Notes: generated by a model not told the origin, from the sequence alone. Numbered from the stretch's first letter, positions 34,891-40,629 are shown. The stretch: DNA of 64,000 bases from an uncultured delta proteobacterium (GCA_963789265.1 CAWBKB010000001.1:1376001-1440000), one strand, 5' to 3'. Translations and numbers: made by a program.

Positions 34891-37306
34891 GTGAGAAGAA
34901 GTCCTAGTCTGGCGGTTTTGTCGGCACTGATGATGGCAGGGATCATGTGCGGTGTCGGAGCGACGAACAATGCCAAACCATACGACGGAAGCCCGCCGTT
35001 CGGACTGGGCAAACTTCAACCGATTACCTTCAAGCCGGAACATGCCGGGGTAGGGGAGACCACTATCTACGGCCCGAAAAAACCATACAACATATTCATC
35101 AATTATGAACTGGGCATGCACTGCGTTGGTTTCGACATATCCTACTGCTGCATCATCCCTCCCTATAACAGCGTACAGGCTCAGGCGGTACGGTCCGCGT
35201 CCGGTTCCGACGGGAAGCCGGTTCTCCTGTCGCCAGGCAATGAGGTGCAACTTCATTATGCCATCAAGGACAACTCCTATAGCGAAGGCAATAAAATGAA
35301 GTACTGGGCTGTGCCCAAGGATGCCAGCGGAGCCGGAACCATGGCTAACCCCGACGACAACATGGCCAATTACGTGTGGAACCATCTATTCATCTATAAG
35401 GATTTGCAAGGGACCCTGCCTGACAACCCTCAGAAGGCCCAACGGCGCTATGTCGGTAAGCAAATACCGGTCAATATCGACTCGGGCCCAACAGGTAGGG
35501 GCGTTGCCGGGGGGTACATGGACTATGCAAGAGAAAAAGGAGGCAATATCGTCTTCACTGATTCCATGCTGCCCGAGCTAAAGAATGTTCCGCTGGTGTT
35601 AACCGCATCTTACCTCTGGGATGCTTTGGGCCTTCCTCGGACCGCGTTCAACGACAGCAGGCGGCGAGGGAGTATAAGAAACCATAACGGATGTCGATTT
35701 CCAGCCATTTCAATATGCATTGGTTCGACTGGTGGACAACAAGGAGCAATCCGTGCTGGGAAACGGCAAACCCGTGGAGTTTTTCGGAACCGAGCCCATA
35801 GACATTTCGATCTGTTCCACCTGCCACTCCGGCCAGGGAATTGCGGCCAATCTGGCAAGGGGTGCGGGAATGTCGCTCTTTGATAAGGAGTATCTCTATT
35901 GGAAGACGAAGTACCATGACACCAGTGAGTACATCGCACGCCAGTCATCGGCTTCGATCCTTGTTCTCGAACTCCATGACAAGCTCCACAAAACACATTT
36001 CCTAAAAGACTATGACCCGAACGCATCATCGAACCGGCTCGGAAAGGTGGGACCTGTCCACTGCGCGGACTGTCACGGTGATAACATGTCAGGAGTTTTG
36101 CAATCACCGAGACCCAGTGCAACCGGATACCCGGGACTGAGAGCCAAGCCTCTAACTGAGGCAGTCCATGCCGCGCACGCTCGATTCATATGTATGCCCG
36201 ACAAAGCCGGACGAACCCAGAGCTGCCAGGCGTGTCATCCAAGCCACTGGCAGAACCCGAAGATGAACAATTTTCGGACAAACCCATATCAGATAGCCGA
36301 TAGCCTGGGCAATCCTCGGTTTTCTTCTGTAGACCTAAGGGTAGCGGGTGGAGGCTGCTATTTGCGTAGGGATGCTCACTCCAACCCTCACGTGAAACCG
36401 CCATTTTTTCTGAATGATATAGGCAAATGGTACCTGCATGAAGTGAGCATGCGGGACGCGTCGGGCAGCAGGATCGATGAGATAAGAGGTTTGTACTGCA
36501 CGAATTGTCACAACAACCTGTCCGATGAGCTTTACAGGTACGACGATCTCAAAGACGCAGCCGCTCAGAAGGGCAAGACCCTCAGGAACAAGCCGGTAGC
36601 GGAGGTCATCCAAGCGGTTGCCCAGGGAGATGAAAAGAAGTTCAAGAACTTGTTTGCCGATCCTATCGTTGGGGTCCAGGGTGAGCCGCTCTACCGGTAC
36701 TTTGCCCGCCATAAGACAGGTCCGCTAGCCCGCACGGTAAAAGGAGCAGGTGGCAAGGTGGAACTGTTGCCCTGGAACGGGCACAAAGGGGACGTAATCA
36801 CCTATTCAGACGCAGCAGCCGGCAAGGATTGGTGGCTCTCACCCGGAGAGCCTCATTGTGCTAACTGCCACATTGCCCCATTCGTGGAAAGCGAGGGAGG
36901 CAAATATTCCCCCATAGACCAACCTGGCAAGTATTCGTTATATCGGTACTCCAAAGCCCACGGGGCGCTCGCGTGCCAAACGTGCCACCAGTCAATGCAC
37001 GGCTTGTACCCCGTCAGATATGATGGTCCGGTTAAAACCGTCGATCTAACGTCTCGCGAGCAAGCATTGCAGTTCAGCCCGGATGGCGTCTACACCGGGC
37101 CAGTTACGTGCGCAGCCTGTCACGCAGTAAATGGCAAAGGAGTGCCGACGATCCTCAAAGGGACCCATTATTATGGCGATTATTGGGCATCGGTGGTCCT
37201 TATCCATTTCATGCGAGAAAAGGACCGAAAATTGTCGACTGAGGAACTCTTAAAGAAATTCCCTTACGAAAAGGCAAACGAAATCGTGAAAGCCGGATGG
37301 AAATAG
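34891..37306 (+). CDS. Large multiheme cytochrome c, 7 CxxCH (frameshift near 35680)
   Basis: Signal peptide; ELGMHC..CCIIPPYN domain; CSTCH, CADCH, CQACH, CTNCH, CANCH, CQTCH, CAACH. Confidence 0.8.
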
Positions 37307-37342
37307 CGAAGGCACTCTCGATTTCTTTGGAGGAAAAAGGGG

Positions 37343-37404
37343 TCAAGTCTGCTCTTGACTCATATCAAGCTACGTTTCGACGTATCGCCTGCACTGATGA
37401 GTCA
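37343..37404 (+). repeat. 62-bp direct repeat, left copy
   Basis: Identical to 38917-38978. Confidence 0.95.
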
Positions 37405-37554
37405 CCCATTAAAAGGCCCTCTGTCAAGGGAAAAGACTCTCCTGTAGCAAGGAAAGAATCGTTTCCTTGCTGAGGGTACGGCCGTGTTTCGCACAGCGTC
37501 CGTCAGCGCCTGCTCTTCGCCTTTGCCGGTATTTCGCTCAGGTGGTGTCGGTAG

Positions 37555-37820
37555 TTTTCCTCACCGCACCAGTCACCCATCAGGATCAAGGCCCAAACCT
37601 TAGAGGTCCTGCCCCTTCCGCTTATTGCGGACCAGAAAATCTTCGGTTCCATGCTGTGTCCAAGAGGAATAGGACAAATCTCATGGTTTTGAACCAACCC
37701 TTTAGTGGCTCACAGCATGGGCGGCAAAGAGTCCGGCTCCCCGGATCTGTGGGGTAGGCGGCTGCCCAATCAAATCTGGTGGTTTTTCCAACCCCTACTC
37801 AGGGTCGCCGCCTACGCCAG
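37555..37820 (-). ncRNA. Candidate bridge/seek RNA
   Basis: Stem-loops 37754-37815 and 37649-37720; loop segments match the target (CAGATTTGA vs CAGACTTGA) and the element end (ATGGGTGA). Confidence 0.65.
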
Positions 37821-37824
37821 TCGT

Positions 37825-38844
37825 CTAACCAATAAGCCTCTTGTTGTCAAAGGGAACTTGGTCCCTCATGATATAATACGCCGCTCGTGCCAGTTTGTGG
37901 CCCAGCGCGGCGTGAGCGCACATACGGTTGGTCCTGGATACCTTCCGATCGAACCAGGCTCTGATTGCCGGATCAAAGCGCCGGGCGAGTTCCGAAGCTT
38001 CGGAAAAGGCCCATGCCAAGTACTTGTTGCCATTCTTCTTGTTACCTGTTCCCTTGCTCTTCCCGTTGCTGGTCCAGCGAGTCGGAACCTTTCTGCAATA
38101 GGACGCATAGTTCCCCGCAGCCTGAAAACGACTTATGGGGCCTGTTTCAAGCATGATGGTGAGCGACAGGATAACCCCCACGCCGGAGATGGTCGTCAGG
38201 CAAGCATATTCCTTCTTCAATTCGATTTTCCCTTGAACCTTCTTTTCAACCTTCTTGATTTGTCGCGTGAGGAAATCTATGCTCTGCTTGCTCACCTGGC
38301 CGGTCAGAGCCAGGTTCTCGTCCTGCTCCAAGAGCGGTGAAACAAGATCATTAGTCAGTTGTTTTATCTTGGCGGCCCCAATCTTCACGCCCATACTACG
38401 AGCGAGGATATTTTGCAGGCTGTTAATAAGTGAGGTTCTCAGCTTGACCAGATGCATCCGTTTGCGTAGCAGGTCTCTCACCGGGCGCTCTTCCCGTGGA
38501 TATATATATCCCTCAGGTAGAATGCCTAAGCGTAACATTTCCGCCAACCAAAATGCATCGCTATTGTCATCGGAATGTTTCATTCCACTGTATTTTTGTA
38601 TAGCGGTAGGATTGGCCAAATGCACTCGGTATCCCGCTTCCATCATCGCATCCACAACCCAGTACCAGTTGAAGGTGGATTCCACTGCTATGCCTTGCAT
38701 ACCTTCCTTGTAAGGTTCAAGGGCATTCAAGAGAACAGCCGAATCATTAACAAGCCTCCTGTTGAACACCCTCTTTCCTTCTCGCTCTACCACCGCCAGA
38801 TAACTGTTGCTTGCATGAAGATCAAGCGCCGCATATACTTCCAT
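37825..38844 (-). CDS. IS110 family transposase/recombinase
   Basis: ALDLH, VESTFNW, KHSDDNSDA, ISGVG, SNGK, GNKYLAWAFSE. Confidence 0.95.
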   Translation of the reverse strand: MEVYAALDLHASNSYLAVVEREGKRVFNRRLVNDSAVLLNALEPYKEGMQGIAVESTFNWYWVVDAMMEAGYRVHLANPTAIQKYSGMKHSDDNSDAFWLAEMLRLGILPEGYIYPREERPVRDLLRKRMHLVKLRTSLINSLQNILARSMGVKIGAAKIKQLTNDLVSPLLEQDENLALTGQVSKQSIDFLTRQIKKVEKKVQGKIELKKEYACLTTISGVGVILSLTIMLETGPISRFQAAGNYASYCRKVPTRWTSNGKSKGTGNKKNGNKYLAWAFSEASELARRFDPAIRAWFDRKVSRTNRMCAHAALGHKLARAAYYIMRDQVPFDNKRLIG

Positions 38845-38916
38845 CGGGCACCTCCTACGGTTAATGGCAAGTCGGGGATACCACATTCCCGACTCAGAGG
38901 TGCCTTTTTGTGATTA

Positions 38917-38998
38917 TCAAGTCTGCTCTTGACTCATATCAAGCTACGTTTCGACGTATCGCCTGCACTGATGAGTCAAGAGCAGACTTGACCCCTTT
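38917..38998. repeat. 62-bp direct repeat, right copy, completing the REP-like hairpin target
   Basis: TCAAGTCTGCTCTTGACTCAT ... ATGAGTCAAGAGCAGACTTGACCCC. Confidence 0.9.
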
Positions 38999-39029: not shown

Positions 39030-40373
39030 TCATCTGGGCATTAACGACTCTATGGCACTACTCAGCCGACGATCGCTCTTCCGCAACATCCGTCGGTCCA
39101 GTCTGCCTTGTTGGTCAGCTTTCAGCAGAGCGTACATTATGCGGTAATACTGGTCCGGGTCCCAACTGACCAAAATCAAATCTACTCCCGAGTTTAATGC
39201 TTCGATGCTCCCGTCGTCCATACCATCGCGGCTGCGGTAAACTGCCATCATGCTGAAGTTGTCGGTGATCAACACGCCGTCGTACTGCCAGTCATCCCGC
39301 AAAAGGCCGGAGATCACCGCAGGAGACATGGAGGCAGGGCGTTTACTATCTATCGCAGTCAATTTTACGTGAGCCAGCATGGTGAAGGCTTTACCATCAC
39401 GCATAAGCGCCCGGAAAGGCACCCAGTCAGTTTTTGTCAGTTCAGTCAGGGAAGTCGCCAGGTTTGCAGGATGGAGATGGGTGTCGCCTGACACTCGGCC
39501 CAAGCCGGGAAAATGTTTGAGCGTGCAATGCACGCCCGCATCTTCCAGGGCGGCGCAATACCAGGCCGCGACCTGGGCCACGACCGCGGGGTCAGCCGAG
39601 ATAGCCCGCTCATAGATGCGTGTGTACCGATCGCCTGGATTCTTCACGTGATGATTGATGTCAACCACTGGCGCGAAATTCAGGTTAACTCCGACTTCGG
39701 CCAGTTCTCGCGCCTGCTCAGCAGCCAAGTCTCGAACCGCTTGTTGCAGTCGGTTCTTGTCCGAATATCGGGCCACCAGTTCCGAAAGTGCGGGAAGCCG
39801 AGTCAGCGGCGGGGACAATCTTGAGACAGGTCCGCCTTCCTGGTCCGTGGCGATCCACAGAGGCGGGAGGTTCTGTTCTTGTCGAATTTGTTGCAGGCTT
39901 TTGATTTGTCTGGCGATCTCGGCAATGCTCTTACCGCGAGCATTGCTGCCCGAAATGAAAACACCCACGACGGCGCGAAGGCTGACAAGTTTCCCAACTT
40001 CCGCGAGGCTCCGATAACCGACGATGAAATGCCGGCCCAATCTTTCCAGTCGGACGGGATTCGCGTGGAGCACCTGGTAGCGATCCCAGTGAAAGCGAGC
40101 TTCCAGAGCTAGAGTAGCTGTCAAAACCAGAGCTGCCGCGAGCAGTCCCAGCTCAGTCAACACCCTGAGAACCTGTTGCTCCGGCCGGGAAGTTATCAAA
40201 AGCCGCAATTCGGCAAGGATCACACCTAGAGGTACGACGATTAGTCCCAGGAGCGCCCAGGGTCTGACTTCCGCGAGAAAAGGGGAGCGCCAGTCCCACG
40301 CAAAAGGGACCAGAGCAAGTGCTATCAGGAGCAGCAAAGCAGCAAGCGGGAATTTCACGGTTCTAGAGGTCAT
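39030..40373 (-). CDS. GH3 N-terminal domain glycoside hydrolase (NagZ-like) with N-terminal TMs
   Basis: ATDQEGG, NFAPVVD, KHFPGLG..DTH, ITD; upstream GTG at 40436 lies inside a repeat, so 40373 is preferred. Confidence 0.85.
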   Translation of the reverse strand: MTSRTVKFPLAALLLLIALALVPFAWDWRSPFLAEVRPWALLGLIVVPLGVILAELRLLITSRPEQQVLRVLTELGLLAAALVLTATLALEARFHWDRYQVLHANPVRLERLGRHFIVGYRSLAEVGKLVSLRAVVGVFISGSNARGKSIAEIARQIKSLQQIRQEQNLPPLWIATDQEGGPVSRLSPPLTRLPALSELVARYSDKNRLQQAVRDLAAEQARELAEVGVNLNFAPVVDINHHVKNPGDRYTRIYERAISADPAVVAQVAAWYCAALEDAGVHCTLKHFPGLGRVSGDTHLHPANLATSLTELTKTDWVPFRALMRDGKAFTMLAHVKLTAIDSKRPASMSPAVISGLLRDDWQYDGVLITDNFSMMAVYRSRDGMDDGSIEALNSGVDLILVSWDPDQYYRIMYALLKADQQGRLDRRMLRKSDRRLSSAIESLMPR

Positions 40374-40429
40374 GACTTTTACTCTGCGTGCTTCCAGGAA
40401 CTCAGCCGCGAGCCTCCAATCCCGGTGAT

Positions 40430-40629
40430 CATTCACTTATGAGAGGTATTTCTGTCACCTGTCATTGCGAGGAGTTCATGGTGGGACAGGCTTCCAGGCT
40501 GTCTATTAGGGATGACGGGCAAGATGCCCGTCCCACCGGCAATCTAAACGGCGTTAAAAGGAAAAGATTACTTCGTCCCGCGAGACGCAGGACTTGCAAT
40601 GACAATCTTTTGCCGCACGCAAGTGAATG
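40430..40629 (+). mobile_element. About 200-bp composite MITE-like repeat, copy 1
   Basis: Near-identical inverted copy at ~51997-52192; ends CATTCACTT / AAGTGAATG; internal TGTCATTGCGAG..GCAATGACA and REP doublet. Confidence 0.8.

Follow-up and report, generated by a model that had tools for sequence, protein, structure and literature searches.

A candidate guide RNA 3' of an IS1111-type transposase gene carries a conserved second target-like loop and a copy of the right element end

RNA-guided bridge recombinases are under development as genome-writing tools, and the choice between insertion and excision is an active question. The closest described systems are the seekRNAs of the IS1111 group and the bridge RNAs of the IS110 family, which we summarize here from passages of the respective papers. 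In IS1111 seekRNAs the top-strand match lies 5' of the bottom-strand match (PMC11187229), and in many IS1111 bridge RNAs a multi-loop contains the donor-binding bases (Durrant et al. 2024, PMC11208160). Published seekRNAs comprise short forms of 82-96 nt and long forms of 148-172 nt (PMC13604230). In IS621, both insertion and excision are modulated by two-base handshake guides, which bind the partner DNA once strands have been exchanged (Hiraizumi et al. 2026, PMC13626964). A further point of comparison is ISPpu9, a member of the IS110 group whose extra module is a separate small-RNA gene that is dispensable for transposition (Pares-Guillen et al. 2025, PMC12288879).

We analyzed a 64,000-nt stretch of DNA from an uncultured delta proteobacterium (the window), which contains an IS1111-type insertion sequence on the minus strand at 37402..38916. 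The element measures 1515 bp with one copy of the common TGA, and its limits follow from the identical ends of three copies in the same genome (left end TAATCAC..., right end ...CCTTTTAATGGGTGA). The transposase gene (339 aa, 37825..38844, minus strand) matches Pfam PF01548 (E 3e-16, 60 bits) and PF02371 (E 5e-12, 46 bits), and its ATG at 38844 is preceded by GGAGG at a spacing of 7 nt. The non-coding sequence amounts to ~420 nt on the 3' side of the gene versus 72 nt on the 5' side. The right end (37402..37427, minus strand) comprises a -35-like TTGACA (37427-37422), the subterminal repeat GCCTTTT (37417-37411) and AATGGGTGA (37410-37402), and the left end (38899..38916, minus strand) comprises TAATCAC and the subterminal repeat AAAAAGGC. 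The subterminal inverted repeats are 7 bp long (AAAAGGC within 38909-38902 versus GCCTTTT), the IS1111 range being 7-17 bp. TAATCAC is a conserved 7-nt extension beyond the left subterminal repeat, and TGATAATCATnTAAAAGGCACC is the left-end sequence kept in most relatives whose contig extends to the left end. A circle in which the right end meets the left end is predicted to create TTGACA, 18 nt and GATAAT, a candidate junction promoter; no circle junction was seen in the contigs from four DNA runs, which stop at the element ends. A DEDD transposase with PF02371, a longer 3' non-coding region, subterminal inverted repeats and site-specific insertion were all found. By these features the element is a member of the IS1111 group of the IS110 family, and by its layout the first loop of the RNA is a typical seekRNA.

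We also recorded the surroundings of the element. In the integrated state, TTGATA of the host repeat lies 18 nt 5' of a GATAAT that spans the junction of flank and left end (38913-38942, minus strand), and this promoter-like site (10 of 12 matches) could drive the transposase gene without circle formation. The element is neighbored by a multi-haem cytochrome c gene with Pfam MtrC/MtrF-like and cytochrome c7 matches (35720-37306, plus strand) and, on the other side, by a glycoside hydrolase family 3 gene (39030-40436, minus strand). The same genome holds solo right-end fragments of ~105 bp on contigs C1 and C8 (L004:1490-1610, and L005 1590-1500 on the minus strand). They contain the terminator-like hairpin, TTGAC and AATGGGTGA, followed by CCTC or CCCC, adjoin copies of the host palindromic repeat and have no transposase gene nearby.

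The locus shares several traits with ISEc11, ISPa11, ISKpn4 and ISPst6, as these are described in passages of Siddiquee et al. 2024 (PMC11187229). The RNA lies 3' of a ~339-aa transposase, and the first stem-loop after the stop codon holds the two matches in the seekRNA order, meeting at the insertion point. Natural retargeting through guide changes, palindromic-repeat targets in some members and the lack of target duplication are likewise common to both. Unlike the published seekRNAs, the conserved structure at this locus extends over ~270 nt; it also includes a second loop of the target type, another three hairpins and a copy of the right end. Three short strings from the subfamily RNA were absent from the supplement text covered for PMC11187229, with only unrelated matches there and in that covered for PMC11208160. 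In the text passages covered, the literature describes neither a second loop that matches the target nor extensions that match the flank for IS1111 RNAs; figures and full supplements may bear on the point.

A sequence-only reading of the 266-nt region 37820-37555 (minus strand) had proposed a bridge or seek RNA with three related loop units, and all the stems and matches it claimed are present at their coordinates, 3' of the IS1111-type DEDD transposase. The fold of this region has a z score of -3.2, and 0 of 200 shuffles fold as well. For comparison we used 79 loci from genome contigs that encode transposase homologues of 49-92% identity, at least 120 metagenome stretches containing a near-invariant 18-mer of the RNA, and a copy on a Paraburkholderia plasmid. 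We aligned 51 distinct non-coding regions, namely 50 regions without large insertions from the genome-contig set and that of the window. The consensus fold has 52 pairs in 10 helices, with compensatory changes at 33 pairs. Paired cells make up 95.5%, a share that falls to 33-47% if partners are displaced by 1-3 columns, and on none of five fold measures did any shuffle attain the observed value (0 of 500). Because the compared sequences are kin, neither this figure nor the permutation numbers given below are probabilities. The candidate is thereby supported as one conserved, covarying RNA fold, and its guide bases track the flanks. Among the public sequencing runs listed for the stretch, none was an RNA run. 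No Rfam family model matched the 3' region, and the only match, at chance level (E 0.85), fell inside the transposase gene. The non-coding regions of a Vibrio plasmid relative (32% identity) and an E. coli plasmid relative (28%) were unalignable by eye.

The predicted structure consists of the unit 1 stem-loop, a variable linker hairpin and a multi-helix junction closed by a long-range helix, all on the minus strand. The linker hairpin UCCGG-GGAG-CCGGA (37732..37745) appears in the folds, and its sequence varies among relatives. In the closing helix the 5' strand (37722..37728) pairs with the 3' strand placed by the consensus fold (37560..37566), and 5 of the 7 pairs show compensatory changes. 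Besides unit 2, the junction contains three hairpins (GGAACCGAAGAUUUUCUGGU, one with CCGC/GCGG and a variable one) and the single-stranded CCUGAUGGGUGACU. Hairpin GGAACCGAAGAUUUUCUGGU (37631..37650) is near-invariant, with the invariant columns TTTTCTGG, and was the anchor of the metagenome scan, and the hairpin CCGCAAUAAGCGG (37618..37630) has 6 pairs with compensatory changes at all of them. The variable hairpin (37588..37615), defined from alignment and fold, is closed by GGGGC/GCCUU, contains AAGGTTTGG, and ranges among relatives from very short to >140 nt.

Several variations on this layout were observed. At 37541-37570 (minus strand) the 3' strand of the closing helix, GGUGCGGU, can alternatively pair with the downstream ACCG..CACC, and relatives show CGG/CCG changed to CAG/CUG on both possible partners (alignment columns 309-340). 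This strand may thus have two mutually exclusive helices; the alternative one was excluded from the pair counts. In several relatives (L042, L048, L056, L057-L063, L082, L083 and L094), unit 1 is separated from the transposase stop by an additional conserved insert of ~200-330 nt (e.g., ...GACCGCTCCGGGCCGCCTCCGACGAGTCACGG...). In the distant relatives L104, L105 and L106 (49-52% identity; record names Pseudomonadales, Deltaproteobacteria and Scalindua), two tandem unit-1-like stem-loops precede unit 2, within the first ~300 nt after the stop. The left guides of the tandem loops are unlike in L105 (GACGUGA versus GACUUGA), and the first loop of L106 has quite different guide strands; this is an arrangement that could truly give two target specificities.

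Unit 1 (37754..37815, minus strand) is a stem-loop with an outer stem of 8 pairs (GTAGGCGGC at 37815-37807, GCCGCCTAC at 37762-37754), all of which show compensatory changes. Its 5' side holds the right-target guide AGGGGU (37791..37796, minus strand), which pairs with the top strand of ACCCCT and was recognized by covariation with the right flank. Its 3' side holds the left-target guide CAGAUUUGA (37778-37770) plus U (together 37769..37778, minus strand), which agrees in sense with CAGACTTGA, including one U-G wobble. The 5' guide was paired with the right flank in 212 of 264 comparisons; permutation gave a mean of 192 (sd 3.7), and none of 2000 shuffles scored as high. The 3' guide was compatible with the left flank in 241 of 270 comparisons in the first flank set (permutation mean 183), from which six loci were put aside as mis-extracted and others lacked a 10-nt flank. 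Over 64 unique triples the figure was 339 of 384 (mean 267, sd 5.9; 0 of 2000 as high). From the enlarged flank set three misparsed loci were dropped, and 12 further loci lacked a complete guide pair. The 3' guide tracks the six left-flank bases that precede the common TGA and terminates in UG-AU, where AU corresponds to the element's first two bases past TG; both sides are constant there and so lie outside the covariation.

Most relatives target ...TG-ACCCC, so GGGG is usually conserved, and lineages with other flanks show matching guide changes. L035 has guide UGUAGCGU with flank ACGCTACA, L089 has CGAAGC with GTTTCG, and L143/L227 have ACAUUCUG with CAGAATGT. L058/L061 combine AGUGCA with TG+CACT, L034 combines GGGGG with CCCCC, and L108 combines AAGGGA with TCCCTT. 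A graded series is formed by L111, L122 and L162, in which the guides CUGAAG, CCGAAG and GCGAAG face the flanks CTTCAG, CTTCGG and CTTCGC, and this stepwise compensatory series also takes in L152. These matched changes, including the changed right flanks of L035, L089 and L111/L122/L162, argue that AGGGG is a guide and not scaffold alone, and they place the crossover at TG. The proposed match of unit 1 to the target at either side of the core held: judged by the covariation that both guides show with the flanks of the insertion site, unit 1 serves as the target-binding loop, with AGGGGU 5' and CAGAUUUGA 3' as in a seekRNA.

The third unit of the sequence-only reading fared differently in its two parts, since the segment does match the right end of the element but is not part of a third loop. 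The GGTTTGG..CC motif on which that loop was based lies in the variable hairpin (37615-37588), and GGUUUGG is unconserved. The segment itself, GAUGGGUG+AC (37572..37581, minus strand), comprises a right-end copy, the crossover UG and two right-flank bases, with GAUGGGUGA at 37581-37573 corresponding to the element end AATGGGTGA. Within it CCTGATGGGTG, with the right-end copy AUGGGUG, is invariant in 51 of 51 aligned relatives, as is CCUGAUGGGUG, which has the same sense as the right end AATGGGTG. Where the two-base extension is of the AC type, the flank starts with AC in 75 of 83 unique elements. For the other extensions (CA, TC, CC, GT), both bases match the flank in 13 of 19 unique elements and the first base in 18 of 19. 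Beyond that count the extension also matches in L034 (CC), L072 (GC), L074 (CA), L108 (UC) and the CU/CTTC lineage, and it misses in L065, L089, L178, L192, L219 and L229. Because the extension tracks the right flank, the segment spells the right element-flank junction and not the circle junction. By the consensus fold, unit 3 is a single-stranded segment of the multi-helix junction. This position differs from that of the right-end guide in IS621, and it is the one noted for many IS1111 elements in passages of PMC11208160.

Unit 2 (37649..37720, minus strand) is an internal-loop module built like unit 1. Both have an outer stem and a short closure of CCA/UGG, and their 5' strand, which terminates in RGGG(N), is followed by an inner hairpin (UGG-loop-CCA) and the 3' strand. 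The 10-bp stem of unit 2 is perfect in the window (CCATGCTGTG at 37720-37711, CACAGCATGG at 37658-37649), encloses GGGUUGG..AACCA and shows compensatory changes at 7 pairs. Unit 2 was found in 51 of 51 aligned relatives. Among the metagenome matches listed (at least 120), it was recognizable in 104 of the 116 loci long enough to judge (85 by pattern, 19 by eye); in the others, four were cut by contig ends, 11 had unrelated upstream sequence and were without unit 1 too, and one (L116) was a fusion. Given this distribution, the extra middle loop is a conserved part of the RNA across the whole subfamily. In L116 (1640-1768), the common GGGTTGG...CCA hairpin connects unit 1's 5' half with unit 2's 3' half, and the intervening part is deleted.

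The claim that unit 2 is a real, related loop was upheld, and a check for invariance across targets found that it varies. Its 3' strand follows the pattern CCAy-GAGA-NN-UG-spacer across the family, and in the window it reads GAGA, UU (flank positions -5 and -4) and UG, the crossover bases (37675..37682, minus strand). The NN dinucleotide is identical to unit 1 at -4 in 107 of 116 unique elements (57 expected from composition) and at -5 in 76 of 116 (46 expected); at positions -6 to -9, identity is near the composition expectation. The dinucleotide was compatible with the left flank in 112 of 128 comparisons; shuffles averaged 90.2 (sd 2.9), and none of 2000 scored as high. For the bases from -9 to -6, agreement with this flank was not clearly above chance (178 of 256 versus 170.5; 87 of 2000 shuffles as high). 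Among the purine-containing dinucleotides, 8 of 16 match the flank exactly (AT, CA, GC, AA) and 8 of 16 mismatch it. A five-copy relative mismatches the left flank at -5 in all five insertions (GC in L057, L059, L060 and L063, AC in L067; flank CC), which indicates that the unit 2 match is not strictly required. From these comparisons unit 2 appears to share the site that unit 1 reads, at the bases adjoining the crossover, and not to specify a second address.

Two other parts of unit 2 were considered as readers. The 5' strand is CGAAG in five elements with right flank CTTC, GGGA with flank TCCC, GAGGC with GCCTC and GGGAC with GTTTC, and the match fails in L035, L207 and L213. As a general right-flank guide it was rejected, being not significant (61 of 2000 and 161 of 2000 shuffles as high). 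The spacer (UCCUAUUCCUCU, 37663..37674, minus strand) shows a family-wide left-end-like enrichment, with AATC in 13 of 40 unique spacers versus 4.5 in shuffles (maximum 11). As a left-end copy the spacer was likewise rejected, with a variable register and a poor match in the window's own spacer (5 of 8). The second loop of a two-loop bridge RNA of the IS621 type has guides complementary to both donor ends, and unit 2 does not: it has no match to the right end, and only a third of spacers resemble the left end.

We consider it fairly probable that the region is the guide-RNA gene of an IS1111-type element that inserts after ...AGACT-TG in a host palindromic repeat, and that units 2 and 3 read the element-flank junctions in a handshake-like step. 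The comparison of relatives shows the fold, and it shows that three sets of bases (those of unit 1, the two-base extension of unit 3 and the dinucleotide of unit 2) covary with the flanks. The RNA would have ~270 nt and two domains, the first being unit 1 and the second the multi-helix junction with two further reading strands. In domain 1, AGGGGU would pair with the top strand of the right flank and CAGAUUUGA with the bottom strand of the left flank. In domain 2, the unit 3 segment corresponds to the right junction sequence, made up of the right end, the crossover TG and the first two right-flank bases. Unit 2 would be an ancient duplicate of the target loop whose 3' strand represents the start of the left junction, with the two left-flank bases by the crossover and UG; in several retargeted lineages its 5' strand also matches the first 4-5 right-flank bases. 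The two junctions, which insertion produces and excision acts on, would have their bottom strands paired with the RNA, the left one with the 3' strand of unit 2 and the right one with the unit 3 segment. In the manner of the IS621 handshake dinucleotides, units 2 and 3 might stabilize strand exchange in insertion or, equivalently, recognize the junctions for excision.

In passages on the IS621 bridge RNA we find the same bispecific plan, with a target loop and a donor-reading part, and guides that read both strands around a two-base crossover. In IS621 the two-base handshake segments match the partner DNA and not the DNA held by their own loop, and units 2 and 3 of the RNA studied here show sequence patterns that may be of this kind. 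Points of difference from IS621 are the location of the RNA 3' of the gene, the reversed guide order, handshake-like bases that prolong the bottom-strand guides, and a unit 2 that sits in the donor position yet has bases matching the target and not the donor. A mirrored handshake-like arrangement is consistent with the reversed guide order. We found no segment clearly complementary to the left end in the RNA, so donor recognition is incomplete in the model, and part of it may be performed by the protein. Two candidate left-end guides, UGAUUGG in unit 1 and the GAUUUUC hairpin, were rejected; neither changes with the altered left end of L108.

A stronger form of the preferred reading, which we put forward tentatively, is a three-reader guide RNA in which the empty target is read by one loop, and the left and right junctions by a separate junction domain made of unit 2's 3' strand and the unit 3 segment. 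Against the preferred reading stands the rather unlikely alternative that unit 2 is scaffold only, left over from a duplication of the target loop, seating the second transposase dimer and never reading DNA, with a likeness to the target that is due to descent, exchange with unit 1 or intraloop pairing. Such an origin fits the build that the two units share, and the natural fusion in L116 implies that the loops can recombine. The dinucleotide also lies within three predicted intraloop pairs (RGG with yyU), one of which shows a two-sided change in 7 sequences, and this pairing could constrain the dinucleotide structurally. The active five-copy relative tolerates its mismatch at -5, and a short seekRNA alone supported ISEc11 transposition according to passages of PMC11187229. 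Yet G pairs with both C and U, so intraloop pairing leaves the choice of pyrimidine unfixed, and the base at -4 still follows unit 1 in nearly all unique elements. The purine dinucleotides AT, CA, GC and AA have changed along with the target in several lineages, and the constancy of the adjoining GAGA argues against simple copying from unit 1.

A further alternative, which we regard as improbable, holds that the end-like non-coding sequences are internal pseudo-ends acting at the DNA level and not RNA guides, and that they enable modular circles or partial elements in the manner of the A'/B' boxes of ISPpu9. Passages of PMC12288879 describe insertion of ISPpu9 into palindromic repeats, internal end-like boxes, partial modules elsewhere in the genome and several circle types made from repeated end boxes; the first three recur here, and no separable small-RNA gene of the ISPpu9 kind is evident in this element. 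In L082 (2587-2868), the internal GATGGGTGA of unit 3 directly precedes CCCCTTTCC, a typical right flank, and the element seems trimmed back to its internal right-end copy. Such trimming, the solo right-end fragments beside host repeat copies in the same genome, and the several metagenome loci that start within unit 2 would be expected of pseudo-ends. A same-sense RNA guide, though, always leaves an end-like copy in the DNA, so that pseudo-end activity can be a side effect. Pseudo-ends also give no reason for a two-base extension in unit 3 that tracks the flank and not the element, and the segments lie within a covarying RNA structure.

The last alternative concerns the 62-bp duplication around the window copy, which the sequence-only reading had tied to unit 2. 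Each of the element's three copies in this genome directly follows AGCAGACTTGA, where a palindromic host repeat has its outer edge; 29 matches to this repeat were found genome-wide. At the window copy this target has 28-nt arms that are 100% complementary (outer arm 37336..37363, partner arm 38971-38998). The C7 copy is a simple insertion, ...CAGACTTGA/element...AATGGGCGA/CCCCTCG (slashes mark junctions), with only TGA in common. Its region is 98% identical to that of the window copy, and the guides of units 1, 2 and 3 are identical. The direct repeat itself proved real: its right (37343..37404) and left (38917..38978) copies of 62 nt are 100% identical and consist of 59 bp of the host palindrome and the common TGA. 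Such a flush duplication was found in 1 of the 40 insertions having both flanks, that of the window alone. The right junction of the window copy is right-end/CTCAT, which corresponds to a crossover at the TGA of site B, CTCTTGA/CTCAT.

That unit 2 is an independent third guide loop for site B, conferring dual specificity and causing the duplication, is very improbable and already largely refuted, although the window's unit 2 contains AUGAG and CUCUUG and the right junction does reflect a crossover at site B. At the conserved scaffold position CCAyGAGA, 31 of 51 relatives, whose targets are different, have ATGAG (19 of 51) or ACGAG (12 of 51), and the TTG of CTCTTG falls on the conserved yTTGGAC. 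Unit 2 is found family-wide and tracks the same left flank as unit 1, and the C7 copy with the same guides inserted cleanly at TTGA/CCCC without duplication. Site B has CTTGA in common with the normal site (site A), and its ACTC can pair with GGGU of unit 1, so an extra loop is unnecessary to reach it. The best reading of the duplication is a separate, one-off rearrangement involving an off-target crossover at CTCTTGA/CTCAT. Plausibly, an off-target exchange between the right junction and site B would have released a circle of the element plus 59 bp, which would then have entered an intact repeat copy via the common 59 bp or the common left half-site. Unequal exchange between sister copies with insertions at both sites would give the same product. 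The contigs from the four DNA runs, ending where the element ends, speak neither for nor against the duplication; one loose end is the right flank of C7.

For this genome the locus is an ordinary three-copy mobile element in a repeat. For the family, the comparison points to a widespread natural subfamily with an extra conserved loop that carries target-matching bases by the crossover, and with a right-end guide lengthened by two flank bases. More than ten independent natural retargeting events are available to learn from, and the patterns in units 2 and 3 lead to testable design rules for IS1111-type systems. The two-loop IS621 RNA gives poor control of reaction direction. If the tentative three-reader arrangement is true, the RNA would provide dedicated recognition of the integrated state, which could control the direction between excision and insertion.
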